Source: Eubacteriales bacterium (lineage in GTDB: Bacteria > Bacillota > Clostridia > Oscillospirales > QAKW01). From it: a stretch of DNA of 64,000 bases. Below are positions 4,110-23,712 of the stretch, in pieces. Numbering within the stretch: position 1 is the stretch's first letter; each line of letters starts with the position of its first letter. Both the position numbers and the translations under genes were made by a program. The notes under the pieces are model-generated. The model had not been told where the DNA came from. It saw nothing but the letters and a program-made list of their open reading frames with translations, and did no database searches. The stretch lies in NCBI GenBank assembly GCA_045541555.1, contig JAZQJH010000005.1, positions 752-64,751 of the forward strand. Direction: 5' to 3'.

Positions 4110-4668
4110 CTTTAATCCCCATGATTGCGGTGATGGACTTGGTGGGTACCATCAACCAGTTTTTTGTCAAGGTAATGCCCAGCTGCCGCCCTTGCAGAGT
4201 GTCCAGCAAGGGCTGCTGCAGGGAGAGGGCGAGGTCGCCGTAGCCGGGGCTGTAGCGGCGGGTGCAGGAAAGCCCTTGGGAAAGCTCCTGCTCTGCGATG
4301 TCGCAGGCGGCATCCGCCAGCGCCGAGGCGTAGGCGTCGGTGATAAAGTGTCCGGTGGGATCGGAGGCGGAAAGCCGCATCAAAAGGCGGTCTACCCCAA
4401 GACCCAACGTGACGGCAAAGAGGAAAGCCTCCCGGCATCCCTCCAGCCGTTTGGCAAGGCTCTCGCTTTTAAAGCAACCAAAGCCCAGATCCAGCGTATT
4501 GCCCTCCCGGCAGATGGCGACGCGCTGACAGGAATAGCGGCAGTCGATGGCGCGGCGAAGGGCTTGCTGATATTTTTCCGTCCCCTCGATGGGAATACGG
4601 CTCATCAATCGGGCGCGCAGTTCGATCGGATCGGGACAGAGAGCTTCGGCGTCGATGGTACGGATCAC
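4096..4668 (-). CDS. methionine synthase activation (SAM-binding) domain protein
   Basis: 190 aa, overlapping both metF and metH. The ..RYSPGYGD.. motif is typical of the MetH reactivation domain encoded as a separate polypeptide. Confidence 0.65.
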   Translation of the reverse strand: MIRTIDAEALCPDPIELRARLMSRIPIEGTEKYQQALRRAIDCRYSCQRVAICREGNTLDLGFGCFKSESLAKRLEGCREAFLFAVTLGLGVDRLLMRLSASDPTGHFITDAYASALADAACDIAEQELSQGLSCTRRYSPGYGDLALSLQQPLLDTLQGRQLGITLTKNWLMVPTKSITAIMGIKDENN

Positions 4669-7691: not shown

Positions 7692-9290
7692 ATGAAACTG
7701 AAATTTTTAGGTGCCGCCCATGAGGTGACCGGTTCCTGCACGCTGCTGGAAGCGGCAGGCAAGCGAATTTTAATCGATTGCGGCATGGAGCAGGGTGCGG
7801 ATATTTATGAAAATTGCAGTATGCCCATTTCGGCGGCTGAGGTGGATACCGTCCTTTTGACCCATGCCCATATTGACCATTCCGGCAAGCTGCCAATGCT
7901 GGCGGCGCAGGGGTTTCGGGGTGAGATCTATGCCACCGGTGCCACCGCCAAGCTCTGCGGTATCATGCTGCAGGACTCCGCTCATATTCAGGAGCAGGAG
8001 GCTCTTTGGCGCAATCGTAAGGCGCAGCGCTCCGGCGGTGACGTCTACGTGCCGCTCTATACGGTGCAGGATGCGGTGCAGACCCTTTCTCTTTTCGTGC
8101 CTTGCATTTATCATCAGGAATATCAGATCGCCGAGGGCATCACTGTCCGCTTTCTGGACGCCGGACATCTGATGGGCTCTGCCAGCATTGAAATTACGGT
8201 GGTGGAGAATGGCGAACGGCACGTTCTGCTCTTTTCCGGCGATCTGGGCAACGTCAATCGTCCTTTGATCCGGGATCCGGAAAAGCCCTCCTATGCTGAT
8301 ACCGTCATTATTGAGTCTACTTACGGCAACCGTCTGCACGGTGAACGCAAGGATTACGTCGGGCAGCTGACGGCGGTTTTGCAGGATACCTTTGATCGGG
8401 GAGGAAACGTGGTCATTCCCTCCTTTGCGGTGGGGCGGACGCAGGAATTTCTCTATCTCATTCGAGAGATCAAGGAAAAAGGTCTGGTCAAAGGGCACGA
8501 TGGGTTCCCGGTCTACGTGGATAGCCCCTTGGCAGTGGAAGCCACTAAGATCTATTTTGGGGATCTTACGGAGTATTACGACCAGGAGATGCTGGATCTG
8601 ATCGGCCGGGGCATTAACGTCCTGGACTTCAAGGGCTTGCAGATCTCGGTCACCAGCGAAGAGTCCATGGCAATCAATGAGAATAAGACGCCGAAGGTCA
8701 TTCTCTCCGCCAGCGGAATGTGCGAGGCGGGGCGGATCCGCCATCATCTGAAGCATAACCTCTGGCGTGCCGATAGTACGGTGCTGTTCGTGGGCTACCA
8801 GGCAGAGGGGACGGTGGGACGTCATCTGCAGGACGGCGCCACCGAGGTCAAGCTTTTCGGCGAGACCATCCAGGTCAAGGCCACCATCGCCACCATGGAC
8901 GGCATCAGCGGTCATGCGGATCAAAAGATCATGCTGGATTGGCTGGGTGCTTTGGAGAATCAGCCCCGTGTCTTTGTCAACCACGGCAACGATACCGTCT
9001 GTGATGAGTTCGCCGCCACCATTCGGGAGCGGCTGGGCTTTGAGGCGACGGCACCCTATAACGGTGCGGTCTATGACGTCCGTACCGGGATGCTGCTGGA
9101 GGAAGGAAACCGGGTTCGGCTGGAGAAACGCTCCGCCAAGAAGATCCGGAACGACAGTGTATTCGACCGGCTGCTGGGCGCCGGTAAGCGCCTGATGGCC
9201 GTCATTGAAAGAAGCCGGGGACGGAGCAATAAGGACTTGGCAAAGTTTGCAGATCAAGTCAATCGATTGGCCGATAAATGGGAGGAATAG
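7692..9290 (+). CDS. MBL-fold beta-CASP ribonuclease-like hydrolase
   Basis: The start is MKLKFLGAAHEVTGSC, the HAHIDHSG motif is present, and a beta-CASP / RNA-specificity C-terminus follows. The ATG at 7692 is preferred over the ORF-track start at 7617. Confidence 0.75.
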   Translation: MKLKFLGAAHEVTGSCTLLEAAGKRILIDCGMEQGADIYENCSMPISAAEVDTVLLTHAHIDHSGKLPMLAAQGFRGEIYATGATAKLCGIMLQDSAHIQEQEALWRNRKAQRSGGDVYVPLYTVQDAVQTLSLFVPCIYHQEYQIAEGITVRFLDAGHLMGSASIEITVVENGERHVLLFSGDLGNVNRPLIRDPEKPSYADTVIIESTYGNRLHGERKDYVGQLTAVLQDTFDRGGNVVIPSFAVGRTQEFLYLIREIKEKGLVKGHDGFPVYVDSPLAVEATKIYFGDLTEYYDQEMLDLIGRGINVLDFKGLQISVTSEESMAINENKTPKVILSASGMCEAGRIRHHLKHNLWRADSTVLFVGYQAEGTVGRHLQDGATEVKLFGETIQVKATIATMDGISGHADQKIMLDWLGALENQPRVFVNHGNDTVCDEFAATIRERLGFEATAPYNGAVYDVRTGMLLEEGNRVRLEKRSAKKIRNDSVFDRLLGAGKRLMAVIERSRGRSNKDLAKFADQVNRLADKWEE

Positions 9291-9293
9291 TAA

Positions 9294-10433
9294 ATGAAGA
9301 TCCTATTTGCGGCAGATATGTCGTTTAACTATTTTGACCGTCTGCCTTCTGCGGCAGAGGCGGAGGCGATCATGACCGGAACGGCCGCTCATTTCAAGGC
9401 GGCGGATTTCAGTATTCTCAATCTGGAGAATATCTTCGGTAAGCCGGAGGAGCATATCCCCATCATTAAGGCGGGGCCCAATCTGATCTCCGACGATCGG
9501 TTCTCTGCATTTCTTGACACCTTGAAGCCGACGGTGGTGGGGCTTGCCAATAACCATAGCCGGGATTACGGCGACAACGCGTTGCTTTATACCAAGGAAT
9601 TCCTGGAGAAGAAAGGCTATATTGCTATCGGTGCCGGGAAGAATATCGAGGAGGCCTATCAGCCGGCCGTTCTGGAAAAGGACGGGCTGAAGGTGGCAAT
9701 TATTGCCGTCAACGAAAATGAGTTCGGCATTGCAGACATGGAGCAGGCCGGTACCGCAGGCTACGATCTCACCCGTGTGACCAAGACCATCTTTGCCGCC
9801 AAGGAGCAGGGCGCTCTGCCCATCGTCTATTTCCACGGCGGGAACGAGCACAATCCCTTCCCCTCGCCGGGCAAGGTGGGACTGTACCGTCACTTCATTG
9901 ATCTGGGCGCTAAGGCGGTCATCGCCATGCATACTCATTGCCCCCAGGGCTATGAGTATTATGAGGGCGCGCCCATCGTCTACAGCATGGGTAATTTTTT
10001 CTTCCCATCCAAGAATGAGCGTCCGACCTGGGGCGTAGGTTATATGTCCACCTTGGATATTTCTGAGCAAGAGATCAAGCTGGGCGTCATTCCTTATTCC
10101 TTTGATTTTGATCATCATACCCCCATGGATGAGGAAAAGAAAGCCAAATTCATGGCGTATCTTGAGGAACTGAGCGCGCCCATCGGCGATCCCCAGGAGC
10201 TGCGCAAGTACTTTGACGGCTGGTGCATGGTCATGGGTCTGAAATACGTGGGCTACCTCAGCTTCGGCCTTGAATCGGAGCCCCCTCAGCAGGCACGCTT
10301 GAAGAACAGCTTCTCCTGCGAGGCGCATAACGAGCTGATCGGCAATACCATCAAGATCTATTTTGAGGGTCGGGTGGAGGAGGCCAAGGAAACGGTGCCC
10401 ACCATCGAGCGGTTGCAGAACACAATATTCTAA
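9294..10433 (+). CDS. CapA-family (poly-gamma-glutamate capsule synthesis-like) metallophosphatase
   Basis: 379 aa with LFAADMSF, GLANNHSRDYG and FHGGNEH motifs. Confidence 0.65.
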   Translation: MKILFAADMSFNYFDRLPSAAEAEAIMTGTAAHFKAADFSILNLENIFGKPEEHIPIIKAGPNLISDDRFSAFLDTLKPTVVGLANNHSRDYGDNALLYTKEFLEKKGYIAIGAGKNIEEAYQPAVLEKDGLKVAIIAVNENEFGIADMEQAGTAGYDLTRVTKTIFAAKEQGALPIVYFHGGNEHNPFPSPGKVGLYRHFIDLGAKAVIAMHTHCPQGYEYYEGAPIVYSMGNFFFPSKNERPTWGVGYMSTLDISEQEIKLGVIPYSFDFDHHTPMDEEKKAKFMAYLEELSAPIGDPQELRKYFDGWCMVMGLKYVGYLSFGLESEPPQQARLKNSFSCEAHNELIGNTIKIYFEGRVEEAKETVPTIERLQNTIF

Positions 10434-10510
10434 TCAAAAAAAGGAGCGAAAATTTCGCACCTTTTTTCTTCTTTTTCTACATATAATAGTATGAAAAGGA
10501 GGAATTGAAG

Positions 10511-11110
10511 ATGCCTGAGGTTTATTTATCGCCGTCGCCCCGGCATTTTAATCAGGGCTATGGTACTTACGGAACAGAGGAAGAACGAATGAATTTGATC
10601 GCCGACGTGGTGGAATTGGAGCTGGTACGCAACGGACTGACCACCGCGCGCAACAATCCGGCTTACGACCTACAGACGGTGGTGGCGGATGCCAACGCTC
10701 AAAATTCAGACGTCTACGTGGCTATCCGCTCAGTTTATTGCGATGCGGGGGTGCGGGGGGCCAAGATCTTTTATTTTCGTCCGGGGACAGACAGTCAACG
10801 CTTAGCGGAAGATATTTTTGCGCGGCTCTCGTTGGTGACCCCCGTGGAGGATCGGGGGATCGAAACAGGGCAGAACGTTTACGGGGGCTTGGGCTTTTAC
10901 GAGCTGCGACGCACCCGGATGCCGGCGGTGATCGTGGAGGTGGGGTGCCATGGAGATCCCCAGGAAGCAGATTTTATCGTTCGCAACGTCTATGAGATCG
11001 GGGTAGCCATCGCAACGGGGATTTTAGATTATTTCGGTCTGCCCTATAATCCTGACTCGGTGGAGGAGCAGCAACGGCTGAAGGATGAGTATGATTCCAT
11101 TTTCTTTTGA
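10511..11110 (+). CDS. N-acetylmuramoyl-L-alanine amidase-like protein (Amidase_3-type, possibly degenerate)
   Basis: YLSPSP..N.G...EE.MNLIAD and PAVIVEVGCHGD resemble clostridial MurNAc-LAA proteins. The usual AIHSNA motif reads AIRSVY here. RBS GGAGG lies 8 nt before the ATG at 10511. Confidence 0.45.
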   Translation: MPEVYLSPSPRHFNQGYGTYGTEEERMNLIADVVELELVRNGLTTARNNPAYDLQTVVADANAQNSDVYVAIRSVYCDAGVRGAKIFYFRPGTDSQRLAEDIFARLSLVTPVEDRGIETGQNVYGGLGFYELRRTRMPAVIVEVGCHGDPQEADFIVRNVYEIGVAIATGILDYFGLPYNPDSVEEQQRLKDEYDSIFF

Positions 11111-13707: not shown

Positions 13708-13784
13708 GGAGGCATAGCTCAGCTGGTTAGAGTACTTGCTTGACATGCAAGGGGTCACTGGTTCGATTCCAGTTGTCTCCACCA
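13708..13784 (+). tRNA. tRNA-Val (anticodon GAC), CCA encoded
   Basis: Hand-folded cloverleaf. Acceptor GGAGGCA/TGTCTCC, D arm GCTC..GAGT, anticodon stem CTTGC/GCAAG with loop TTGACAT, T arm ACTGG-TTCGATT-CCAGT, discriminator A, then CCA. Confidence 0.9.
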
Positions 13785-13786
13785 AA
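13766..13786 (+). repeat. attL core (direct repeat, overlaps tRNA-Val 3' end)
   Basis: Identical 21-mer to 23692-23712. Confidence 0.8.
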
Positions 13787-13879
13787 TAGAAAAAACCGCT
13801 TGATTTCAAGCGGTTTTTCTTTTTCTGTACACGATTGGTACACGATTTTTCTTGAAATTCGTGTACGGAATAGAGAAAA

Positions 13880-15007
13880 TCAGGTGATTTTATCCAGGAT
13901 ATTGACCGCCCGATCTTCTTCACGTGGGTATAGGTGGGAGTAGGTATTCCAGGTGATCTCTATTTTAGCGTGACCGAGCCGTCGGGCAACCTCTTGAATG
14001 TTGATCCCTTCATTGGCCAGGAGTGAGGCGTGGCTATGGCGAAAGTCGTGGATCCGGATGATCTTCAGACCGGCTGCCTCTGCATACTGTTTGTTCCGGT
14101 TGCTTACGCTGCTATCACGCAGGGGAGCGGTGCCGCCGCAGATGCGCCAATCGTCTGTGAAGCCCTCTGCGTGCGCTGTGTAGCGTTTTTTGTGCTCGTC
14201 CAAGACTTTTATCAAGGGAGCCGGTAATTTAATATCACGGGCAGACGTGCGGTTTTTGGGCGGTGTTTCACGATCACCGCCTTTTAATTTTTGGTTGATG
14301 GATCGGCGGATCTTGAGGGTATTCCCGTCAATATCAGACCATTTGAGGGCGTGGATCTCTCCCTTGCGCAGTCCGGCATAGAAAGCAATGTTGAAGAATA
14401 CATAGAAATTCCACTCAAAAAAGCCCTCTGTCTCTGCCGCCGTTTTGGCAGCATCCCTGTATTTCAGCCATTCATCGGGGGTGTAATAGTCTATTTCTTT
14501 CTTTTCTGCGTATGCATCACGGAAGCCGCCGAGCTTCTTCAATAAATTGGTGGGAAGATAGTCCATCTTGACGGCATAATCCAGGATCGAGCAGAGCGGC
14601 CGGTAGATATTCCGGCGCATGGAGAGGGCGAGCCCCTTTTCTTCAATCCCCAGTTTCCATCGTTGCAGGATCTGAAGATTGATTTTATTGAGCTTCAGAT
14701 TGCCAAACTCCGGCAGGATATGGTTTTTGATGATATGCTTTTCCTTTTCCAGCGTGGACTCTCTGACGGTGGGTTGCTTTTGACGTATATACTCTTCATA
14801 GAGGGCTTGAAAGGTTCTGCCGGTGGAAGGCACCGGGGCCGCTTTGATCTCCTGGAGCAGTTCACGCTCTTTTTCTTTTGCCTCATTGGCACCGTAGACG
14901 ATCCGGGTGAGTTGCCGGGGTTTTCCGGTGGCGGTGGTGTAGTTGATCCGTACACGGTATTTTTGCTGACCGTCTTTCTTTTCGCCTTCCACTTTGTAGA
15001 TCGGCAT
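13880..15007 (-). CDS. tyrosine site-specific recombinase (phage-type integrase)
   Basis: R..HDFRHSHASLL..LGHAKIEITWNTYSHL catalytic region. ATG at 15007 with GGAGGTGA 8 nt upstream. Confidence 0.9.
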   Translation of the reverse strand: MPIYKVEGEKKDGQQKYRVRINYTTATGKPRQLTRIVYGANEAKEKERELLQEIKAAPVPSTGRTFQALYEEYIRQKQPTVRESTLEKEKHIIKNHILPEFGNLKLNKINLQILQRWKLGIEEKGLALSMRRNIYRPLCSILDYAVKMDYLPTNLLKKLGGFRDAYAEKKEIDYYTPDEWLKYRDAAKTAAETEGFFEWNFYVFFNIAFYAGLRKGEIHALKWSDIDGNTLKIRRSINQKLKGGDRETPPKNRTSARDIKLPAPLIKVLDEHKKRYTAHAEGFTDDWRICGGTAPLRDSSVSNRNKQYAEAAGLKIIRIHDFRHSHASLLANEGINIQEVARRLGHAKIEITWNTYSHLYPREEDRAVNILDKIT

Positions 15008-15027
15008 AAAAATCACCTCCTAAGGTG

Positions 15028-15135
15028 TTGAAAAATCAATGTTGATATAGTATAATATAAATGTGCATGAGCCACGAGTGCGGTGTTTCATGTCCATGAC
15101 AGCCTCCGCCAAGAGCGGAGGCCTCTTTCTTTTTA
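15028..15135 (+). ncRNA. micro transcription unit 1 (promoter + ~75-nt transcript + terminator); possible leaderless 12-aa ORF MCMSHECGVSCP
   Basis: TTGAAA (15028-15033) / 17 nt / TATAAT (15051-15056). Terminator GCCTCCGCC..GGCGGAGGC plus T-run ends at about 15135. Confidence 0.45.
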
Positions 15136-15141
15136 AAAGCC

Positions 15142-15281
15142 TTGCATAAGCGAGGAAGATCTGCTATAATATGGGTGGTTGGTTTAAAGTTTGCAAAAGA
15201 CTCATGCGCAGTTGACGAGCTGCGGAACCAATTCTCCTTAAAATTGCCTCCGTTTCAGTCATAACGGAGGCTTTTTCTTTT
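15142..15281 (+). ncRNA. micro transcription unit 2 (promoter + ~110-nt transcript + terminator)
   Basis: TTGCAT (15142-15147) / 17 nt / TATAAT (15165-15170). Terminator GCCTCCGTT..AACGGAGGC plus T-run lies at 15246-15281. Confidence 0.45.
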
Positions 15282-15298
15282 GTTGGTCTATAAAACAC

Positions 15299-15413
15299 TT
15301 GCAAAAGGCAAGGCGATATGATAAAATATAAATGGTTCCGGGCGTTGTCTGTACCGTACCGGAGCTGCCCTTTATGAACGTCCCTGCACCGCAGCAGGGG
15401 CGTTTTTCTTTTT
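15299..15413 (+). ncRNA. micro transcription unit 3 (promoter + ~85-nt transcript + terminator)
   Basis: TTGCAA (15299-15304) / 17 nt / TAAAAT (15322-15327). Terminator CCCTGC..GCAGGG plus T-run ends at about 15413. Confidence 0.45.
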
Positions 15414-15553
15414 GCCTTAACGTGGATCCTGCTCAGATCGGCAGGAGCTGCGCCTGGATGAGCGGGTAAGGAATGAATTATTTGCCATAATCCTATGGGT
15501 TATTCTCTTTGAAATCAAGGGTTATTCTTTTTAGGTTTTTGTAAATATCTGTA

Positions 15554-16243
15554 TTATGTGAAGTTAAATCCGCTGAAAATCGGAAAAGCAAATACTAAAT
15601 ACACCGTAAATATGGCGGCGAGGAGCCAGCAGAGGAAGATTGGCACACCGACGTTGGCTAACAAGGTAAAAAGCCCGTGGGCAGATATTATTGCTACAAT
15701 GGCGGTGGTGCAAAGGTATGAACCAAGTGCTGCGTCTTTAGCCTTCTTTATCTCTCCCACGTTGGTTAGGTTGTTCAAGGCGGCGAGCCATGCAAGGATT
15801 GGAAACCACACAAGAGATAACAATAAAATGGTGTTGTCGGCTGGGATGATTTTCGGCATGGCAAGAATATAGCCGTAGGTATAAAAGGCGCCGCCGATCA
15901 GAGCGGTGATGCCAAGGACGACGTTGGAATAATTACTGCTCTCTTTATATTTCGGGGGATCTGTATTGTCGTAATTGGGGGCCGCATTGATGGTGATAAC
16001 TCGGCTGCCATGTTCTACTTTTATTTTGGAAATAGGGGAGGCTTTTGGAATATCAAGCCCGTTGAGCTCGCAACGCTCAATTTCTGTTACGATCATTTGT
16101 GTAGCAATATTGAGCAGAGATTGACGATCGGTGAGGAGGTAATTGTCAATAGATACACCCAAATCCGGGATAGTGATTGTATAGTGGCTGTATTCACTTT
16201 CTGGGGTTAGGACAACAGGAAAGGTATAGTTGTTCGTTTTCAT
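15554..16243 (-). CDS. HicB-like N-terminal domain fused to a ~4-TM membrane domain (element cargo)
   Basis: YTFPVVLTPESE..YTITIPDLGVS follows the HicB/UPF0150 pattern. The C-terminal half is hydrophobic. I prefer the ATG at 16243 to the one at 16252, which abuts the RBS. Confidence 0.4.
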   Translation of the reverse strand: MKTNNYTFPVVLTPESEYSHYTITIPDLGVSIDNYLLTDRQSLLNIATQMIVTEIERCELNGLDIPKASPISKIKVEHGSRVITINAAPNYDNTDPPKYKESSNYSNVVLGITALIGGAFYTYGYILAMPKIIPADNTILLLSLVWFPILAWLAALNNLTNVGEIKKAKDAALGSYLCTTAIVAIISAHGLFTLLANVGVPIFLCWLLAAIFTVYLVFAFPIFSGFNFT

Positions 16244-16268
16244 GAATGGCATTCTCCTTTTAGTTTAA

Positions 16269-16778
16269 TCAAGGATTTGTTAGTTTTTCGCTAAATTTCA
16301 ATATATCATCCGCTGAAAATTTTATACAATCGTCGCAAAGATCGTAGTATCCATCTGCTACGGCAGAATCGAGGGATCTGTATTTCTTGCTATTTTCTTT
16401 GTCAGGTTTATGATAACACTCCAGATCGTGGATAGTATGGGTCGTTGTATTTACGATATATCGGTAGTCGTCCTGTGACCAATGGATTATAGCTAAAATA
16501 AGCAGAGTAATTGCAATACCGGTGAGGATGGTTGTGAATACCGGAGAATCGTAGTAAAGCTTTGTAAAGCCTTTCATAGCTAAGATAAAAAGAGCAAGGA
16601 GGGCGGGAAAGCAAAAAACAAGCCCAAGGATCAGGATATAAGGGATAAAGCTAAACCAAATATCAAAAAGAACTATAATGCAAAAAAATGCCAGAATAGC
16701 AATTCCGATAGAGAAAAGAAATAAGATCCAGCCGCCGTCTTTTAGATTCTCTTTGAGGTGTTTAAAGAAATATGACAT
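16269..16778 (-). CDS. membrane protein with C-terminal Cys/His (zinc-ribbon-like) tail (element cargo)
   Basis: 169 aa. About 4 TM segments are followed by HDLECYHKPD...YRSLDSAVADGYYDLCDDC. Confidence 0.4.
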   Translation of the reverse strand: MSYFFKHLKENLKDGGWILFLFSIGIAILAFFCIIVLFDIWFSFIPYILILGLVFCFPALLALFILAMKGFTKLYYDSPVFTTILTGIAITLLILAIIHWSQDDYRYIVNTTTHTIHDLECYHKPDKENSKKYRSLDSAVADGYYDLCDDCIKFSADDILKFSEKLTNP

Positions 16779-16820
16779 AATATTCTCCTTATGATCTCCG
16801 GCTTAGGCGCTGGAGATTTT

Positions 16821-17309
16821 TTAATTGTCGTCTTGTTCATTGTCAATCTGGCTTTCTATATCGGCGATATTGCGCAAAAGGGCTTTTCTTTCTTGATAGG
16901 TGCCGGAAGGCGTGACGGTTTCTTTGGCACCACCAAAGGCAACGATCTTTGCCTGCTCTTGAGCAGGTTCAGTAGGGATCATTCGCAACGTGGGTTCTTC
17001 GATTTTTAGTAAACGATCTACGGCTGGTTGTATATCCGGCTGGTTTCTATAGGCAGTAATTAGTTTTTCTTCATGGCTCGAAAGGGTTAATACTGTGGCT
17101 TTTGTAGGTGCTTCCCAACCCATAAGATAAGCAGGGGTTGTTTTTAGGGCTACTGCGATTGGTTCCAAAAAGTCGATGGGAAGATTTTCAATTTCGCCGT
17201 TTTCATATCGATAAATTGTAGAACGATCTTTTCCTAAACGCTTTCCCAGGTCATTTGCACTCATTTTTAGGGCTTTTCGTCGTTCCTTGATTCTTTGTCC
17301 TATATTCAT
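16821..17309 (-). CDS. XRE-family repressor (CI-like) of the element
   Basis: HTH MNIGQRIKERRKALKMSANDLGKRLG..STIYRYENG. ATG at 17309 with RBS AAAGGAG. It is divergent from the cro-like gene. Confidence 0.8.
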   Translation of the reverse strand: MNIGQRIKERRKALKMSANDLGKRLGKDRSTIYRYENGEIENLPIDFLEPIAVALKTTPAYLMGWEAPTKATVLTLSSHEEKLITAYRNQPDIQPAVDRLLKIEEPTLRMIPTEPAQEQAKIVAFGGAKETVTPSGTYQERKALLRNIADIESQIDNEQDDN

Positions 17310-17345
17310 GAAATCACTCCTTTTATATGTTATTATAAAAGAATT

Positions 17346-17465
17346 GTCGCAAAAATGCAACAACAAAGTTGCTTTTTATAAAAAACAGTCGCAAAATATG
17401 CGAAAATTGATTGACTTTTAAAAAAAGAGGTGATATTATAAAAAAGCAGTCGCAAGTCATGCGAC
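17346..17465. promoter_or_regulatory. divergent promoter region with operator repeats GTCGCA-N5-TGCGAC
   Basis: Sites lie at 17346-17361 (weak), 17388-17404 (1 mismatch) and 17449-17465 (perfect). The plus-strand promoter is TTGACT (17411-17416) / 17 nt / TATTAT. The minus-strand promoter is TTGCAT / 17 nt / TATAAT and overlaps the first site. Confidence 0.6.
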
Positions 17466-17480
17466 ATTGGAGGTGATGAA

Positions 17481-17681
17481 ATGAAGGTCTGCGAATTAAA
17501 GAAAAAAATGGATGAGAGAAGAATCGGGGTTGACGCTTTATCACAAGCATTAGGAATTGACCGCTCTACCATGTATCGAAAACTGGCTGCATTAGAAAAA
17601 ATCACAATCAAAGAAGCTAAAAAAATAGTTAAGATACTCGGCTTTAGCAATGAAGAAGCAATAGCTATTTTTTTTGGTTAA
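17481..17681 (+). CDS. Cro-like small HTH protein
   Basis: 66 aa. HTH in ALSQALGIDRSTMYRKL. RBS GGAGGTGA. Confidence 0.65.
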   Translation: MKVCELKKKMDERRIGVDALSQALGIDRSTMYRKLAALEKITIKEAKKIVKILGFSNEEAIAIFFG

Positions 17682-17682
17682 A

Positions 17683-17703
17683 CAGTCGCATGGTGTGCGA
17701 CTG
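17683..17703. promoter_or_regulatory. fourth operator copy (perfect palindrome CAGTCGCA-TGGTG-TGCGACTG)
   Basis: Same half-sites as the switch region, located just after the cro-like stop. Confidence 0.55.
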
Positions 17704-17727
17704 TTAATTTAAGAAAGGGGCGCCAAT

Positions 17728-17931
17728 ATGGAAAATTGGACAGTACAGGCATTAAGAAAACTAAAAGACAACCACATTAAGCAAAAGGACGCGGCGGAGC
17801 TACTGGGGGTTACCCCGGAGCACGTGAGCCGGATCCTCAATGGGAAAAAGAGAACCCGGTGGGGTGAGTGGCAGATCATGGCCGCCATCGACAAGCTGAC
17901 CGCCGGGAACCGGCAGGAGGTGGCGGGATGA
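17728..17931 (+). CDS. small HTH DNA-binding protein
   Basis: 67 aa with QKDAAELLGVTPEHVSRILNG. Confidence 0.55.
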   Translation: MENWTVQALRKLKDNHIKQKDAAELLGVTPEHVSRILNGKKRTRWGEWQIMAAIDKLTAGNRQEVAG

Positions 17932-18494
17932 AGCTGAAGGATCTATTGAGCGGGTATTGCACCACCGAGGAAGAGATCATTGCCAACGTGCGGCAGGAGG
18001 GCAGTCTTTTTGACCGTGCTTCGGCAGAGGCGTTGATCCAGCAAGCCCGGCAGGAATGGCCGGTGCAGTTTGACGGCGAAGAGGGGGCACCCGAGGAGTT
18101 GACCCCTTTGGAGGCGTGCGTGAGCTGTTATCTCCGAGGAATGTATGTGGCGAAGTCGCAGCTTGATATTTTGGTTGACCGTGTGGCAGAGCTGGAGAAA
18201 AAGAAAGAGGAGTTGCAGGAGCAGATCTGCAAGTCGGATTACACTGCGCAACGTGCTCAGATGATACAGCAATGTTTCCTTGACTTTTTAGACGAGGCGG
18301 TCTTTGTCCGAGGAGAGAAGGACGAAGAAAAGCGGTTGATCTCTGCGGATCATTTCTTTGAAAAGCTGAGCCATCATCAGGAAGAGGTTTATACCGTATT
18401 AGATCTGCTGGCGGACGTGATCACCGATCTGAATGAGCTGCGCTATCTGTTTGCTGGCGGAAATCCGGGACCGGTGAAAGGGGTGGCGAAATGA
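17928..18494 (+). CDS. hypothetical protein (acidic, coiled-coil segment)
   Basis: The ATG at 17928 overlaps the upstream stop (ATGA). I recognise no motif. Confidence 0.45.
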   Translation: MKLKDLLSGYCTTEEEIIANVRQEGSLFDRASAEALIQQARQEWPVQFDGEEGAPEELTPLEACVSCYLRGMYVAKSQLDILVDRVAELEKKKEELQEQICKSDYTAQRAQMIQQCFLDFLDEAVFVRGEKDEEKRLISADHFFEKLSHHQEEVYTVLDLLADVITDLNELRYLFAGGNPGPVKGVAK

Positions 18495-18943
18495 AGCTCC
18501 TAAAATTCTACCTCAAGTATTATCTTTTCCGATCCATCCGGAAGGTGGAAAACATTGAGCGGGTAATCCGGTCTCTGGGGTTTCGAATTTATGAGTATGA
18601 TCCTCTTGAAACGAAGGGGGATATGGTCAAATTTTTGAGTTTGCTGGGCTGTTTGGATTATAGCAAGGATAAAAAAGCTTTTACTTATTGGGCTAATGGT
18701 GCTGTAAATCGTATCGTGTTTACTCAAGAAGGTTTTAATGACGATGATCGGCGCACGTTGCTTTTTCACGAGGCGGCACATATTTGGTATGACCATCTAC
18801 ATATTACCGGATTTACAGATCAGAGCGATATTCAGCAAGAGGTCACGGCAAATCTTTTTGAACGCAGATTACGCATTTTGAAAGGTATTACATATGCTGT
18901 TTTTGCGGTGTTAATATGCGCTGTGTTTGGTTTTTTTGCTTGA
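18491..18943 (+). CDS. HExxH metallopeptidase-like protein with C-terminal TM anchor (ImmA/IrrE- or BlaR1-like), paralog 1
   Basis: LLFHEAAHIWYDHL, with a hydrophobic tail ITYAVFAVLICAVFGFFA. Overlapping start (ATGA). Confidence 0.5.
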   Translation: MKLLKFYLKYYLFRSIRKVENIERVIRSLGFRIYEYDPLETKGDMVKFLSLLGCLDYSKDKKAFTYWANGAVNRIVFTQEGFNDDDRRTLLFHEAAHIWYDHLHITGFTDQSDIQQEVTANLFERRLRILKGITYAVFAVLICAVFGFFA

Positions 18944-18966
18944 ATTACATAGAAAGGGGCACGGTT

Positions 18967-19245
18967 ATGAAAAGACCGGAAATTACAGACATTGCGGCGG
19001 CAATCCGCTGCTATTACGGTGCCGGGTATATCGGCAATAAAGAGATTCAACAGATCTTCGGCAAAATATCGTCGGGGACCGTATCACGGTTGAAAAAGGC
19101 GGTCCGGGAGGAAGAGATACGACAGTCTATCCCCGAGGTAGTGCCGAAAAAGGTTAGCTCCCGGATCGCCTACGAGGTATGGCAGATTGATATTGATTCC
19201 TTGGTGAAGAACTATAAGCAGCTTCAGAAGCTGGGGCTGGTGTAA
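18967..19245 (+). CDS. hypothetical small protein (92 aa)
   Basis: Lies between the two HExxH paralogs, with the ATG at 18967. SGTVSRLKKAV may be an HTH-like segment. Confidence 0.4.
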   Translation: MKRPEITDIAAAIRCYYGAGYIGNKEIQQIFGKISSGTVSRLKKAVREEEIRQSIPEVVPKKVSSRIAYEVWQIDIDSLVKNYKQLQKLGLV

Positions 19246-19246
19246 C

Positions 19247-19702
19247 ATGAAGGTATTGCAATTCTATCTCAAATACTTCCTGTTCCGATCCACCCGGAAG
19301 GTGGAAAACATTGAGCGGGTGATCCGGTCACATGGCTTTAAAATTTATGATTATCGACCGGAGGAAACGACAACAAAGGTTGCTGATTTGATTCGAGCTT
19401 TGGGGGTGGAAGACTTTGCTCAAAGTCAACATGGCTTTGTGGTGGTTAATCCTATTATCAAGGGTGTTTTTATCAAAAAAGGTATGAGTGATGCGGATCG
19501 GATTTGTATTCTTTTTCATGAGGAGGCACATATTTGGTTTAACCATCTTAATACAGAGAATTTCACAAATCAAACGCACGTACAGAAAGAGGCGGCGGCT
19601 CATAATCTGCTTCTTATAGTACGTTTTTTAAAGGCTGTGACGGCTTTTACGGTCGTTGCGGCGTTGGTTATTGCCCTTAGGTTTTGGGGCGTTGTAGCTT
19701 AA
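19247..19702 (+). CDS. HExxH metallopeptidase-like protein with C-terminal TM anchor, paralog 2
   Basis: ILFHEEAHIWFNHL. The N-terminal 40 aa are nearly identical to those of 18491-18943. Confidence 0.5.
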   Translation: MKVLQFYLKYFLFRSTRKVENIERVIRSHGFKIYDYRPEETTTKVADLIRALGVEDFAQSQHGFVVVNPIIKGVFIKKGMSDADRICILFHEEAHIWFNHLNTENFTNQTHVQKEAAAHNLLLIVRFLKAVTAFTVVAALVIALRFWGVVA

Positions 19703-19714
19703 TTTTGATGATAA

Positions 19715-19803
19715 TTTCGCACCGATAGCGTGAGCGCAGAGCTCTAATCATGGAAATATGATCGCACCGATAGCGTGAGGCGATAGCTTCTAAACATGGG
19801 AAA
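19715..19803 (+). repeat. two tandem ~45-bp repeats (core TCGCACCGATAGCGTGAG)
   Basis: The core occurs at 19717-19734 and 19762-19779. Both units end in ..CTAA(T/A)CATGG. Confidence 0.7.
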
Positions 19804-19810
19804 GGAGATC

Positions 19811-20482
19811 ATGATGGAAGGTGTCATGATGGCGGCTGAATCGGCCGCACAAACCGTTGATAACGCAACGGCAGGGGTGGAGGTCGTGGCTTCACCTGAG
19901 GGTGCTGTATCGGAAAATAATGCGGAGGTACAGGGAAGCCCGGAAGGCGGGGAACGTTCACCGGTACAGAGACAGAACCGGGACACCAACGCCTATTTTA
20001 AGGGGCTTCGCCAGAAGGCGGAACAGCAGGCAAAAGAGCAGCAGGATGCGGACGAGCAGGCGGATTTTGAAAGTCGAGTGAGAGAGTCTGATCTATATCG
20101 GGAACTTGAGGCACGGGCAAACCGTGATCGGATGGAAGCCGATATGCTTCGCTCTGATGCAGAGCTGCACCGAGTAGATGAACAGATGCGCGCGGATCTG
20201 GAAGCTATTCAAAAGTTAGATCCCACAGTCCGGTCTTTGGAGGACTTGGGGGATGATTTTGTGGAGTTGGTTCGAGAGCACGATGGCCCTACTGCTTTTC
20301 TGATCATGAAGGGATTGGAGGCATTGAAGCCACCAATTACCGGGGAGATCGGCGGTATGGGAAGTTATGAGCGAGACTTCACCAGCGATGAATTGGATCG
20401 ACTGCAAAAGGGAGATCTGATTAAAAATGACAACCTCTATAAAAAGGCGATGCGCTCTTTGTTAGGGGGGTTAAACGAATAA
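19811..20482 (+). CDS. scaffolding-like acidic coiled-coil protein
   Basis: About 223 aa, rich in E/D/R/Q, with predicted long helices. It sits immediately upstream of the capsid-like gene. RBS AAAGGAG lies before the ATG at 19811. Confidence 0.4.
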   Translation: MMEGVMMAAESAAQTVDNATAGVEVVASPEGAVSENNAEVQGSPEGGERSPVQRQNRDTNAYFKGLRQKAEQQAKEQQDADEQADFESRVRESDLYRELEARANRDRMEADMLRSDAELHRVDEQMRADLEAIQKLDPTVRSLEDLGDDFVELVREHDGPTAFLIMKGLEALKPPITGEIGGMGSYERDFTSDELDRLQKGDLIKNDNLYKKAMRSLLGGLNE

Positions 20483-20507
20483 TTTACAACAAAAGGAGAT
20501 TTTTATT

Positions 20508-21332
20508 ATGGCATATTCTAATTTTAAGCCCGAGATCTGGGCGGCAACGATCGAGAGAACCTTGCGGCAGAAAACTATTTTGACGGATTTCTGCAATACC
20601 AAGGTGGACGGACAACCTACCTACGGTAGTGTAGTCAACATTTTGGGAGCCGGTGTTCCCAGCGTAAGAAAGTATGATCCTGATGCAGGTCTGACCACCA
20701 TTGATAAGCCCGAGGGCAATGTGGTGCGTTTGCTGATCGACCAGGCAAATGAGTTTAACTTCATGGTCGGTGATATTGACAAAGCGCAGACTACTCCGGA
20801 TCTGATGCCTGCTCTGTTGGATGAAGCTGCCGGTGAACTGGCTATGCACCGTGATGTTTATATCGCAGAGCTGGCAAGAAACGCCGCAAATATTTCGGAG
20901 TCTATGGCCATCGCAACGGCAGCAGAGGCGAAAAAAGCGATTGATACCGGATTGCGCCGGTTGCGTGAAAACAACGTGACCCCGGATAAGAACGTCCGCA
21001 TCGAGCTCTCTTACTGGATGTATCAGCTCTTCCGGGATTACCTGGTGGATGCTAAGACGGCCAATGATGCGCTGCTGAAGAACGGCACTATCGGGATGTA
21101 TGATGGCTGTGCCGTTGCATACAGCAATAACATTGCCAAGACGGAGGATGGTACCGATTATCTCTGTATGATTCGTACCGATAAGGCTATTGCTTTGGCG
21201 GCTCAGGTGGAAAAGGTGGAGCCTTACCGCCCGGAGAAATTCTTTGCGGATGCCGTGAAGGGTCTTGACGTATTCGGTGCCAAGATCGCCAGAGAGAACG
21301 AGATCTACGTCGTGAAGTGCCACGAGGCATAA
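20508..21332 (+). CDS. putative major capsid protein (small HK97-fold / P22-coat-like type)
   Basis: 274 aa. The N-terminus MAYSNFKPEIWAA..ER resembles the F(I/K)PEIWS start I recall for ~300-aa firmicute phage capsid proteins. RBS AAAGGAG is strong, and a strong terminator lies at about 21339-21372. Confidence 0.5.
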   Translation: MAYSNFKPEIWAATIERTLRQKTILTDFCNTKVDGQPTYGSVVNILGAGVPSVRKYDPDAGLTTIDKPEGNVVRLLIDQANEFNFMVGDIDKAQTTPDLMPALLDEAAGELAMHRDVYIAELARNAANISESMAIATAAEAKKAIDTGLRRLRENNVTPDKNVRIELSYWMYQLFRDYLVDAKTANDALLKNGTIGMYDGCAVAYSNNIAKTEDGTDYLCMIRTDKAIALAAQVEKVEPYRPEKFFADAVKGLDVFGAKIARENEIYVVKCHEA

Positions 21333-21402
21333 AAACCAATCCCTCCCCATCGAAAACGGTGGGGAGGGTACAAAAAACTAATACATAAAGAAGGGGCTAA
21401 AA

Positions 21403-21660
21403 ATGAAACAGACAATAAACAAACGGCATAAAAAATGTCGATCTTTTGAGCGGGAGCTATTGCGGAAGATTTTCAATATCCTTTGCCGGTGCGGTATGGT
21501 GATCGGCGTGATTGCCTTGATCGGTATATGGGGCGGCGCAGAGTTCGGAGAGCTGCTGATCGGTCGGCGGATCCTCTGGACGGTTATGGATCTTCTTTTG
21601 ATCTGCGCTGCGGCACGTGGCGATTCTATGACAGGGAGGGATCCCGATGGAATTCTTTGA
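21403..21660 (+). CDS. small 2-TM membrane protein
   Basis: 85 aa, with a basic N-terminus followed by two hydrophobic segments. Confidence 0.4.
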   Translation: MKQTINKRHKKCRSFERELLRKIFNILCRCGMVIGVIALIGIWGGAEFGELLIGRRILWTVMDLLLICAAARGDSMTGRDPDGIL

Positions 21661-21871
21661 ACTGCTGGCTGCTATGAAAGCACGTGCGCCGGTGATGACT
21701 CGGATCAAAGAACCGTCTTATGAGGTTTTAATTGTGGGGACGGTTGCAGGGGTCGGTTATCGGTTCGATAAAGACAGCAAGGTGGTCGCACAGGCAGAGA
21801 TCAAGGATCGGAGCAGCAATTCTATTACGGTCGTTGCTTGCGAGAATGTAGAAAAATTGTGGCAGGATTAA
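21647..21871 (+). CDS. hypothetical small protein
   Basis: 74 aa. It overlaps the upstream gene by 14 nt. Confidence 0.35.
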   Translation: MEFFELLAAMKARAPVMTRIKEPSYEVLIVGTVAGVGYRFDKDSKVVAQAEIKDRSSNSITVVACENVEKLWQD

Positions 21872-21932
21872 AGTAAAATCAAATTCCCAAACGCTTGGGA
21901 ATTTGCGGATATAAAGCGAAATTTTAAGAGAA

Positions 21933-22036
21933 AATGCCTCCCTGGAATAACACCCGGGGAGGCATTGGCAACGGAACTGAAAAGGAAAAACGGTTAAGAT
22001 CTGCGGTGCTTGACCGGGGGGAGGCGGTCGCCTCCC
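21933..22036 (+). promoter_or_regulatory. two hairpins sharing GGGAGGC/GCCTCCC arms (candidate replication origin)
   Basis: AATGCCTCCC (21933-21942) pairs with GGGAGGCATT (21957-21966). GGGAGGC-GGTC-GCCTCCC lies at 22019-22036. Both lie directly upstream of the Rep-like gene. Confidence 0.4.
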
Positions 22037-22135
22037 GATGGGCCTTGTATGAAGTATTAACTTAACGCACGTTTTAAAAGGGGCAGCGGTATGGTATTTT
22101 ACAGACAAAATATGACAATAGGCGGAGATTTTGCT

Positions 22136-22897
22136 ATGATTACGGCGGTTCCTGTCTATCAAATGATATCCGGAGTGGCACACAAGCGCCGCAGGCGGTC
22201 GAGATGTAAACCTACAAGGGAGGCGCAAGCGTGGGGGAATAAGAAACGAGCAGAGGAGTATTTCTTTTATCTGGTTCATGAAAACTTTACGCTTGAAGAT
22301 TATCGCCTGGATATTGATTTTAAGGACGAGTGTATGCCAAAGAATGAGCAGGATCTGAAGAAGGTCATGCGGAATTATATTGTGCGCTTGCGCCGTCTTT
22401 ATCAGAAATATGACCTGGAATTAAAGCTGATCTGGATTCCGGAGAGATCCGGCAAGGGACGGATTCATATTCATGGCTTTATCAATGGCGGTGTACCGGT
22501 AGAGGAGATCCGCAAGGCATGGAAAGAACAGGGGCGGGTCAATATGGATCGTTTTCAATATGATCAGCACGGCTTGGAGGGATATGTTCATTACGTCTTT
22601 AAGGATCCGTTGTTAGCTAAGCATTGGTGCGCAACAAAGAATTTGAAAAAGCCGGTGCAGCGTAAATCTGATTACACATTGCGACAAAAGGATGTTTCTG
22701 CGGTTCGCCGTGGAGATCTCCGGGAGCTGGAGCAACGGCTGACGGGCTGGGAAGTGATCGTGGCTCGGGAGGAATGGGAGGAACCCAGCGTTTTAAATTG
22801 GTCTGTAGTGGAATCGGAAGTCCGGGACAACGAGGTGAACGGATATCCGTATCTTTACATAAAGCTATGCCGGAAAAATGCCCGGTTAAGCTATTAG
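22136..22897 (+). CDS. HUH-type rolling-circle replication initiator-like protein
   Basis: The HUH-like motif is GRIHIHGFI. A Tyr-rich motif EGYVHYVFKD lies about 35 aa downstream. The ATG at 22136 has a GGAG RBS, and 22091 is an alternative start. Confidence 0.5.
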   Translation: MITAVPVYQMISGVAHKRRRRSRCKPTREAQAWGNKKRAEEYFFYLVHENFTLEDYRLDIDFKDECMPKNEQDLKKVMRNYIVRLRRLYQKYDLELKLIWIPERSGKGRIHIHGFINGGVPVEEIRKAWKEQGRVNMDRFQYDQHGLEGYVHYVFKDPLLAKHWCATKNLKKPVQRKSDYTLRQKDVSAVRRGDLRELEQRLTGWEVIVAREEWEEPSVLNWSVVESEVRDNEVNGYPYLYIKLCRKNARLSY

Positions 22898-23071
22898 GAA
22901 TTGAATAGTAGCTCCGCATCAGCGGGGCTTATGCTACGTGATTTTGTTAAGATTTGTTAAGATCATTCGTGCGCAGGCGTGCGTGCATATAGCAAGCGCA
23001 CGTGCGCAAATAATATGTTGCTGTTAATGATACCATCTTAACAGCTGGAAAAAGTATGAGGATTTGATGAA

Positions 23072-23353
23072 ATGGCAGAGGTTTTTAGGCAAAATAAGCG
23101 GTTGAAGGTGCCCTATTGGCAGCAGGGATATATCTTTTTTGTATCGAGAAAATATGATAAACTTCCGGCATATCAGCAGGAATGGATCTTGGAACATTGC
23201 CAGGAGGTCGGCAGGGAATATTGGAAGGCGCTTTTTGATTACGTGACTACGGATATCAGCGCAACGGCGGTGTGTATTAAATCTTATATTTCTGAATCTA
23301 CGTTGAATCGGTTGGTGAAACGGTACTATGATGAGTTTCCGAAGGAACTTTGA
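23072..23353 (+). CDS. hypothetical small protein, possible transcription regulator
   Basis: 93 aa. The C-terminal SESTLNRLVKRYY segment is HTH-like. Confidence 0.3.
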   Translation: MAEVFRQNKRLKVPYWQQGYIFFVSRKYDKLPAYQQEWILEHCQEVGREYWKALFDYVTTDISATAVCIKSYISESTLNRLVKRYYDEFPKEL

Positions 23354-23440
23354 GCGGGAGCTGGTCGCCCATCGGCGGCATTCGTGGAGCGGATCAGCGC
23401 CGCAGGGGATAAAAGGAGCGGTGCCTATGATCGTTCTCTG

Positions 23441-23558
23441 TTGACAATGCCTGTATATTGGTGCTATACTATTTGCGAAAGAGATATTGACTGCTGGTGA
23501 CAAGCCTGAGTTATTATGACTCCGCCCACCCTTTCAGCAATGTCTCTTTTTGTTTTTT
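23441..23558 (+). ncRNA. candidate ~80-nt small RNA in the right arm of the element
   Basis: TTGACA (23441-23446) / 18 nt / TATACT (23465-23470). The closing stem pairs GAGATATTGACTG (23481-23493) with CAGCAATGTCTC (23535-23546) and is followed by T5GT7. Confidence 0.35.
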
Positions 23559-23691
23559 TGTACACGATTCGTACACGAATAAATCGAAAAAAAGAAAATG
23601 GTCGGTGTATGACATTGAATAAAAATGCAGATTTCAAGCCACTTTTTGAAGATTTGCGAAAGTGAATAAATGTGAAAAAACAGTACTTTTT

Positions 23692-23712
23692 ATTCCAGTT
23701 GTCTCCACCAAA
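23692..23712 (+). repeat. attR core (direct repeat)
   Basis: Identical 21-mer to 13766-13786. Confidence 0.8.

Follow-up and report, generated by a model that had tools for sequence, protein, structure and literature searches.

A contig of an uncultured Eubacteriales bacterium (JAZQJH010000005.1, GenBank assembly GCA_045541555.1) contains a 9.9-kb element that is integrated at a tRNA-Val gene. This element is probably an integrative phage satellite, which evolved from temperate podophages of uncultured gut Clostridia and is most likely also their parasite. The DNA that was analysed, here called the window, is a whole stretch of 64,000 nucleotides (64 kb, positions 752 to 64,751 of the contig). 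The element is the segment between two 21-bp repeats, and its coordinates are those of the window. Loci used for comparison are designated by L-numbers.

The element is real and sharply bounded, and it is one of a small family of three members or more. It has general marks of a satellite: it brings its own means of integration, its own switch and its own replication protein (Rep), and part of the set of virion, packaging and lysis genes is missing. The original prediction, made by a model that read this DNA, had proposed a new type of satellite that uses the portal, terminase and tail of a helper. The comparative data favour a satellite, but the type is only partly new, since portal-less mini genomes have been described in a 2025 preprint (10.1101/2025.06.18.659913).

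Boundaries and sister elements

The integration target is a gene for tRNA-Val(GAC) on the plus strand (13708..13784), which is found both by ARAGORN and by Rfam (RF00005, 68 bits). The 3' end of this gene is regenerated by the left attachment (att) site. The core of this site, attL, is the 21-bp direct repeat ATTCCAGTTGTCTCCACCAAA at 13766..13786 (+), and the core of attR is an exact copy at 23692..23712 (+). There are exactly 2 copies of this 21-mer in the 64 kb, 9,926 bp apart, where 0 would be expected by chance.

Just inside the repeats lie what look like arm-type integrase sites. The octamer GTACACGA occurs 5 times in the window, each time at most some 150 bp inward of a repeat: at 13827, 13838 and 13859 (inverted), and at 23560 and 23571. 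The sites have the form GTACACGAWT, with two direct copies and one inverted copy on the left (13827..13866) and two direct copies on the right (23560..23580, +). The interior, 9,905 bp long, has 46.0% GC, against 53.4% and 53.6% in the 10-kb flanks, and the GC content of the element is the lowest among 217 sliding windows of 9.9 kb. Precise boundaries, tandem end motifs that may act as arm sites and an AT-richer interior had all been predicted from the sequence. The exact repeat pair and the composition agree with this, and the end motifs, which are confined to the element's ends, recur in both sister elements described below.

The element holds 16 open reading frames (ORFs), all of them intact, which fill 81% of it; the largest is a 375-aa integrase. 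The minus strand carries the genes for the integrase, the cargo and the repressor CI, and the plus strand carries cro and all the others. This is the divergent arrangement of classical phage-inducible chromosomal islands (PICIs) and Staphylococcus aureus pathogenicity islands (SaPIs).

A sister element, L003, is present in another metagenome-assembled genome (MAG), GCA_053312675.1. It has att repeats of about 36 bp that are 11,660 bp apart, it sits at a gene for tRNA-Val(CAC), and tandem copies of GTACACGAT are found inside both ends, where the same arm motif occurs. L003 is syntenic with the element in the window gene for gene. The integrases are 83% identical, p109 and the capsid protein 82% each, Rep about 70%, p93 63%, the M78-like proteins 46-50% and the scaffolding protein 40%. 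The third member, L178, is a partial one on a metagenome contig of 2.6 kb from ERZ15610165. It contains p85, p74, Rep (74% identical) and p93, and at its right end the arm motifs and an att core of the tRNA-Val type. The flanking DNA differs among the three. All copies seen are integrated ones.

Relation to a family of temperate podophages

Eight genes of the element, those for the integrase, p109, the scaffolding protein, the capsid protein, p85, p74, Rep and p93, have their homologues in a single family of temperate podophages. The related loci come from MAGs of Eubacteriales and Clostridia. The late region of these phages was found together with the capsid homologues in L004, L005, L006, L007, L009 and L010. 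It starts with TerS (Terminase_2), TerL (Terminase_6N), a P22-type portal, fibres, a holin and a lysin with an SLH domain. Then follow scaffold, capsid, an SU10-type adaptor, proteins of about 726 and about 180 aa, and a giant protein of 2,700-2,900 aa. In L011, L012 and L014 the order is early genes, Phg_2220_C, Rep, a p93 homologue, TerS, TerL and portal.

The left arm of the L009 prophage is available as L175, and has an integrase (66% identical to that of the element), a CI of the S24 type, Cro, a p109 homologue, early genes and TerS. From the L175 integrase to the end of the L009 giant gene, all on one contig, this prophage exceeds 31 kb. In size the element therefore comes to about 1/4 to 1/3 of a helper genome, which fits small heads, or multimers in full-size heads. 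The M78-like pair, p188, the second helix-turn-helix (HTH) gene and the cargo are found, outside the element, only in L003, and not in the phage loci examined.

Two short contigs, L176 (1-6678) and L177, encode an integrase at 74% identity, a repressor that lacks the S24 domain, Cro and a homologue of p109; on L176, just 5' of the integrase gene, there is also a p85-like gene. Perhaps they represent one more relative, either phage or element, whose form is permuted or circular.

The capsid gene (20508..21332, +) encodes an HK97-fold major capsid protein of 274 aa. It matches PHROG 267 ('major head protein') at 1.2e-35, and over residues 1-268 it matches PDB entry 8E16 (Che8 gp6, HK97 fold, T=9) with E=1.7e-28. 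In GenBank it matches 350 phage records along 80% or more of its length, and all but a few of the matches listed bear the annotation major capsid or head protein. No Pfam family matches it at E <= 0.1. Its identity to the capsids of L004, L006, L009 and L010 is 72-79%, and to those of L005 and L007 it is 62%.

Directly 5' of the capsid gene is the gene for the scaffolding protein (19811..20482, +). Its match to PHROG 206 is weak (0.0087), but it is 34-52% identical to the gene immediately 5' of the capsid gene in seven phage loci; in L009, for example, the scaffold and capsid genes together occupy 9198-10816. It was for these two genes that a capsid of the HK97 fold and a scaffold-like function had been suggested. 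The full-length match to a capsid protein of solved structure bears out the one, and the position of the homologues in the phages bears out the other.

Within the capsid protein, 4 of the 274 positions are specific to the satellite clade, and these are conservative or C-terminal. With a capsid protein that is barely altered and a scaffold that is just 34-52% identical to its phage counterparts, a change of shell size would more plausibly come from the scaffold. It is probably this divergent scaffold, and not the capsid protein, that would set a smaller shell size. In L003 the scaffold gene contains internal tandem duplications of 51-nt units and of 142-nt units (9231-9332, 9479-9803). These explain its greater length (278 aa), and they mark the scaffold as the fast-evolving partner of the capsid module.

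Ahead of the scaffold gene are two tandem copies of what we call motif B (19713..19808, +), a conserved leader 5' of the scaffold genes of the parent phages. Its parts are CGCACCGAWAGCGTG, a second stem in which two pairs show compensatory changes, and CTAATCATGGAGAA, which runs into the ribosome-binding site. Each phage locus has one copy, directly 5' of its scaffold gene (L004 9150; L005 1029; L006 9158; L009 9148; L010 5572; L014 12094). In our reading, motif B is the leader of the scaffold gene, and the element would have inherited it. Synthesis of the P22 scaffold is autoregulated post-transcriptionally, which suggests an autoregulatory role for this predicted leader as well.

In the phages motif B lies directly downstream of another conserved sequence, palindrome A. 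In the element this is a perfect palindrome of 24 bp, AAATTCCCAAACGCTTGGGAATTT, at 21881..21904, between p74 and Rep. Its 18-bp core, TTCCCAAACGCTTGGGAA, is identical in L004 (9119), L009 (9116), L010 (5540) and L014 (12063), where it stands between lysin and scaffold. The proteins of these four phages are only 60-80% identical to each other, and the palindrome is far better kept than the surrounding coding DNA. L003 has a copy with one mismatch, also 5' of Rep, at about 11500. Palindrome A is a candidate terminator or protein-binding site.

Rep itself is an HUH rolling-circle protein (22091..22897, +), with matches to PHROG 3584 (1.3e-48) and to PF23343 REP_ORF2-G2P (33.3 bits, cut-off 27.8). 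It has the motifs GRIHIHGF and YVHYVFK, in which the H.H, Y and K positions are at least 95% conserved in 18 homologues. The HUH and tyrosine motifs had been recognised before; the start at 22136 that went with them had not been placed correctly, because the N-terminus is conserved in the homologues from 22091 on. Identity is 55-61% to the Reps of L011, L012 and L014. DNA similarity to the phages starts at 21975-21980, about 110 bp 5' of the gene, and the conserved stretch (21980-22090) includes a GC-rich hairpin at 22013-22040. This region is a candidate origin or promoter.

Like the capsid, scaffold and integrase genes, Rep is thus an ordinary gene of a family of tailed phages with double-stranded DNA (dsDNA), from which it follows that rolling-circle replication was inherited from the parent phage. 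The idea that the HUH Rep points to viruses with single-stranded DNA (ssDNA) was considered and rejected, as the same Rep family occurs in ordinary tailed prophages. A Rep of 68% identity is also found in L013 (1354-2112), in an unrelated siphophage whose capsid belongs to PF05065 and which has an S78 protease and TerL_ATPase. Different phage morphotypes have therefore exchanged the Rep module.

Three small genes accompany Rep. The first two, p85 and p74, have homologues in the early regions of the phages. p85 (21403..21660, +) has hydrophobic, apparently membrane-spanning segments and is 46-60% identical to proteins of L011 and L176, and 51-52% to those of L003 and L178. p74 (21647..21871, +) is the homologue of a phage early gene, with 43% identity to L014 75-296 and around 50% to L003 and L178. 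On the other side, p93 (23072..23353, +) is the conserved partner gene of Rep, 41-54% identical in L011, L012 and L014 and 61-63% in L003 and L178. In the phages its homologue lies between Rep and TerS. A single-sequence AlphaFold2 (AF2) model of p93 has a pLDDT score (predicted local distance difference test) of 45 and is unusable.

What the element does not share with the phages is the order of these genes. From p109 on, the element reads M78b, scaffold, capsid, p85, p74, Rep, p93 and attR. The phages have Rep and p93 ahead of TerS, TerL and portal, and scaffold and capsid after the lysin. Given that scaffold and capsid are 5' of Rep in the element, unlike on the phage map, no single internal deletion yields its gene order. 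A capsid gene about 0.8 kb 5' of Rep is found in the window and in L003 only. In L058 and L160 Rep is about 6 kb 5' of the capsid gene, with the portal gene, and in L160 also TerL, in between.

These last two loci belong to a survey of 160 further loci with capsid relatives of 35-48% identity, which were collected by scans of IMG/VR and metagenomes with the capsid alignment. The element layout occurs in 0 of the 160, all of which are phage-type or too short to judge. Of the 160, 97 loci measure 8 kb or more; a portal, terminase, adaptor or related partner is present in 93 of these, and the other 4 have large neighbouring ORFs of the phage type. None has the integrase, p109 or M78 genes, and Rep is present in two, L058 and L160. 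A capsid scan of genome contigs gave two loci, both phages. Two small gut 'Bacteriophage sp.' records with distant homologues of Rep were also looked at. L001 (MT836660.1) is a fragment of a prophage early region without a capsid gene, and L002 (MT837226.1) has no capsid homologue by tblastn and no terminal repeat.

No gene for a portal, terminase, adaptor, fibre or tail protein or lysin was found by profile search or tblastn, neither in the element nor in the rest of the 64-kb window. This agrees with the original prediction, which had noted the lack of portal, terminase, tail and lysis genes. At the level of DNA, blastn matches between element and phages are limited to motif B, palindrome A, the region 5' of Rep and a segment that resembles a small RNA (sRNA).

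Switch, cargo and candidate small RNAs

The left part of the element starts with the gene for a tyrosine integrase (13880..15007, -), 375 aa long from its ATG; the ORF runs to 15016. It matches PHROG 1 at 4.6e-68, and also PF00589 and PF14659. The identity to integrases of the podophage family is 66-74%.

Next are two cargo genes. The protein of the first (15554..16252, -) has a HicB-like N-terminal domain (PHROG 497 at 2.9e-6) and a hydrophobic C-terminal half with, by eye, apparent transmembrane segments. The second (16269..16778, -) is known as an ORF only. Its product is hydrophobic, again with apparent transmembrane segments by eye, has a Cys-rich C-terminus, and gives no family match in Pfam, PHROGs or PADLOC. 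As to known defence systems in the cargo, PADLOC produced generic HTH matches only.

The switch consists of a CI-like repressor and a Cro-like protein. The CI-like repressor (16821..17309, -) has an HTH_3 domain (PF01381 at 3.9e-12) and no S24 peptidase domain. It is 38-39% identical to its counterpart in L003, whereas the CIs of the phage family do have the S24 domain. Induction of the element therefore probably does not proceed through self-cleavage of the RecA type. The Cro-like HTH protein (17481..17681, +; PF13443 at 5.5e-7) is encoded divergently from cI, with a promoter-like site at 17411-17439. Downstream is a second HTH protein of 67 aa (17728..17931, +; PF01381 at 7.8e-7), which is 45% identical to that of L003. 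It is followed by the element-specific ORF p188 (17928..18494, +), or p208 if an upstream GTG is used. p188 has no family match in Pfam or PHROGs, and matches nothing but repeated segments of L003 proteins.

Two genes of the rightward operon, for M78/ImmA-like proteins, lie on either side of p109. Protein a (18491..18943, +) has a hydrophobic C-terminal segment and matches PHROG 87 at 5.8e-5 and PF06114 at 0.0055; for protein b (19247..19702, +) these values are 5.3e-6 and 4.3e-4. Both have the HExxH motif, and their Pfam scores of 16.9 and 20.5 bits are under the curated cut-off of 22 bits. The two genes are paralogues. L003 carries one copy, which indicates a local duplication in the element of the window, and motif B is duplicated right beside it.

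Between the two is p109 (18967..19245, +), of 92 aa, which is 63-67% identical to proteins of L175 and L176. Its homologue in the parent phages follows cro as the first of the early genes (63-65% in L175). An AF2 model has a pLDDT of 92, yet a Foldseek search of PDB and BFVD gave nothing significant. The M78-like proteins, p109, p93 and the small RNAs discussed below are candidates for functions that sense or manipulate a helper. For this left side, the original prediction had listed an integrase, a switch of the CI/Cro type, two HExxH proteins and membrane cargo, and all of these are present, with sub-threshold Pfam matches for the HExxH pair and membrane segments judged by eye for the cargo.

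The small RNAs had been predicted as well. Units that run from promoter to terminator are indeed seen, so that there are candidates, but none has an Rfam match: with Rfam at the gathering threshold and at E <= 1, the element gave only the tRNA and matches at chance level. Three tandem units of promoter, hairpin transcript of 70-106 nt and terminator occupy 15028..15416 (+), with fold z-scores of -2.9 to -3.75. In L003 an analogous array of about 5 units is found at 2893-4125, where 8 promoter-like and 8 terminator-like sites compare with 1.8 and 1.7 expected. Both arrays are placed between the integrase gene and the cargo or repressor genes. The position is kept, and the sequence not obviously so.

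A further candidate sRNA is located near the right end (23441..23560, +). It has a TTGACA-18-TATACT promoter, an 89-nt hairpin (minimum free energy -27.3 kcal/mol, z = -4.7) and a U-run. This segment is 82% identical to the antisense strand inside the giant virion-protein ORF of L005 and L007 (10576-10666, -), and both of these loci retain the same antisense promoter. The element's transcript, if made, would thus be complementary to the giant-protein mRNA of L005 and L007. It is not conserved in L003 or L178.

Rfam also detects a lysine riboswitch (RF00168, 88 bits) at 54946-55121 (-) of the window. It is in the host part and is unrelated to the element.

Competing explanations and known satellites

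If the element is a satellite, its life cycle might be as follows. During lysogeny, CI would repress the rightward operon. Induction, or infection by a helper, would lead to excision, after which Rep would replicate the genome as a rolling circle or in sigma mode, so that concatemers form. Scaffold and capsid proteins of the element would be made from the motif B leader, which it has in common with the scaffold gene of the helper. They would then assemble on the helper's portal, alone or mixed with helper subunits. A headful terminase of the helper would fill these shells, and the adaptor, tail and lysis proteins of the helper would complete and release the particles. With a genome of 9.9-11.7 kb, the shell would probably be smaller, its size set by the divergent scaffold. 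It is possible, and we suggest it only tentatively, that the satellite makes the whole shell of capsid and scaffold proteins of its own on a stolen portal, taps the scaffold leader of the helper, and makes an antisense RNA to a helper virion gene.

Several observations weigh against a satellite. Excision, a circular form, encapsidation and helper dependence are predictions from the sequence. No helper prophage was found in the 64-kb window by tblastn with 18 proteins of the phage family, and blastn (word size 9, all phage loci) revealed no pac-like or TerS-like recognition sequence in common with the terS regions of the phages. Scans with the capsid and Rep alignments found no member or close relative among the viral contigs of IMG/VR. 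The known members are 2 complete and 1 partial, and the hosts are MAGs. Motif B is absent from L003. The capsid protein has no sequence signature of size redirection, given its 4 specific positions. Two results that speak for a satellite have limits. In a neighbour-joining tree, window, P0002 and L003 capsids group in one clade next to the phage clade, but the tree comes without support values. The ratios of nonsynonymous to synonymous substitution (dN/dS) between the window and L003, which are 0.05 for the integrase, 0.07 for the capsid, 0.14 for Rep, 0.17 for the scaffold and 0.21 for p109, indicate purifying selection, but they are rough, because dS is saturated (about 2).

Some of these points would suit a defective prophage, rearranged and possibly domesticated, that no longer transfers and whose conserved genes serve the host or the element in another way, for example in superinfection immunity. 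Such a remnant would explain why 8 of the 16 genes, the integrase included, are homologous to one prophage family, why blastn against the phage loci found no packaging determinant, and why members are rare and not seen in collections of viral contigs. We consider it unlikely. Decay of a prophage was the alternative named in the original prediction, and larger intact homologous prophages do exist, but a single internal deletion of their map cannot give the gene order of the element. This derived order is kept in three members, at tRNA-Val sites for GAC and CAC and with differing flanks. The element has genes beyond those of the phages (the M78 pair, p188 and the cargo), all 16 ORFs and both att sites are intact, and the dN/dS values of 0.05-0.2 are those of integrase, capsid, scaffold and Rep, functions with no obvious use in a fossil that does not move.

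The element might also be an integrative rolling-circle element whose capsid and scaffold proteins serve mainly as decoys against phages. They would poison the assembly of related podophages that enter the cell, or give it the wrong size, which would protect the host, and the element would have no need of being packaged itself. Since the capsid protein can hardly be told apart from those of the phages, co-assembly is plausible; the scaffold is divergent. There is a precedent in Ccm of SaPIbov5, a capsid homologue that blocks its helper (PMC5052747), and the membrane cargo on the lysogeny strand and the candidate sRNAs, of which one is antisense to a virion gene of the phages, could fit as well. 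On the other hand, PADLOC matched no known defence family, and in known systems such interference is usually coupled to satellite transfer, so that this overlaps with the model of a satellite rather than replacing it. The spread over different tRNA-Val sites also implies horizontal transfer by some vehicle. As the main function of the element, interference is quite unlikely.

Very improbable is an autonomous virus without a portal, in which the HUH Rep makes a genome, possibly of ssDNA, that is enclosed by the virus's own capsid and scaffold proteins without any helper. The gene content (capsid, scaffold, Rep and integrase, and no other structural gene) is as in the mini genomes of the 2025 preprint (10.1101/2025.06.18.659913). 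Against this, Reps of 55-68% identity initiate replication in ordinary tailed dsDNA prophages that have a portal and terminase, the capsid is 72-79% identical to capsids that work with a P22-type portal, and functions for lysis or entry are absent. If true, such a lineage would break a rule, namely that viruses of the HK97 fold package their dsDNA through a portal. We know of no portal-independent packaging by an HK97-fold shell.

A satellite is therefore also what the element is compared with here. By analogy, it would work most like a SaPI of the Ccm type taken further. In SaPIbov5, Ccm is about 19% identical to the capsid protein of the helper and cannot form capsids alone (PMC5052747). Alike are the use of an HK97-fold homologue of the helper capsid together with the portal, terminase and tail of the helper, and the small integrase-bearing island. 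What differs is that the element's capsid is 72-79% identical to phage capsids and comes with its own scaffold. SaPIs furthermore have a pri-rep of the primase/helicase type and a helper cos site, whereas the element has an HUH Rep and no identified packaging site. Of the features of classical PICIs and SaPIs, the element has the divergent layout of integrase and repressor. It lacks pri-rep and TerS, and it is not free of structural genes.

P4 is another small satellite, of about 10-12 kb, that is integrated at a tRNA gene, has its own immunity and replication, uses the portal, terminase, tail and lysis functions of a helper, and makes a smaller head. It reshapes the capsid protein of P2 with the external scaffold Sid, replicates with the alpha primase-helicase, and has the P2 cos site. 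The alpha primase-helicase, Sid/Psu, delta/epsilon and cos are not features of the element, which gave no such Pfam or PHROG matches, and for the element a smaller head is a prediction.

Capsid-forming PICIs (cf-PICIs) have genes of their own for capsid, protease, portal, head-tail connectors, HNH, TerS and TerL, so that tails are all they steal (10.1101/2022.09.08.507074). They are similar in that they have a capsid protein of their own, acquired from a phage, and take other virion parts from a helper. The element has capsid and scaffold only, with no match to HNH or terminase genes, and so, unlike a cf-PICI, it would depend on a helper for portal, terminase, adaptor and lysis proteins as well. 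The defining features of cf-PICIs, of classical PICIs and SaPIs, and of P4 are thus all lacking in part or in full, in line with the earlier remark that the element does not fit the standard layouts of prophages, PICIs or P4.

More distant comparisons can also be made. The Streptomyces satellites MiniFlayer and MulchRoom are described as having encapsidation proteins of their own and missing key replication genes (PMC10690885). The element would reverse that pattern as described there, with its own Rep and integrase and an incomplete head module. The archaeal SRCE satellites of spindle-shaped viruses combine a Rep replicon with an incomplete morphogenetic module, sometimes the capsid alone (10.1101/2025.02.15.638363). 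They differ in that they belong to another virus realm and have another capsid fold, derive from plasmids rather than from a helper, and have no described integrase or targeting of tRNA genes.

Closest in appearance are the portal-less 'twilight-zone' HK97 mini genomes from the human gut (10.1101/2025.06.18.659913). These measure 5-11.6 kb (8.9 +/- 0.6 kb) and carry capsid, scaffold, RepA, integrase and repressors; capsid and scaffold are their sole structural genes, and a portal, terminase or tail is lacking. The preprint counts 523 mini genomes. They are circular metagenomic contigs with direct terminal repeats, to which no host, att site or helper was assigned, and in that preprint they are interpreted through the evolution of encapsulins, with the idea of a helper-free virus raised (10.1101/2025.06.18.659913). 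Compared by description, the size class (9.9-11.7 kb in the element family), the gene content and the gut origin are alike. Their dominant clade has encapsulin-like capsid domains, while the capsid of the element is of the Che8/PHROG-267 type and has no encapsulin-like signal. For the element, the present analysis gives the integrated form, the target (a tRNA-Val gene) and the family of the parent phages.

Among characterised satellites, one group reshapes the capsid of the helper (Sid, CpmAB, Rcm, TcaP, Ccm), and the other carries a whole head-and-packaging module (cf-PICIs). No description of satellites of Firmicutes podophages with capsid and scaffold only was found in the literature. If the present interpretation is right, this family would be an intermediate design, in which a full-strength capsid and scaffold are all that is brought along, and the rest comes from the helper. 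As the hosts are uncultured gut Clostridia, practical impact hinges on the discovery of a cultivable pair of host and helper.

It would also point to a route by which satellites originate: assembly from parts of their own helper's lineage, followed by streamlining to about 1/4-1/3 of the parent genome. The portal-less mini HK97 genomes of the gut, in turn, may be integrated satellites with identifiable parent phages, which is an explanation that can be tested.

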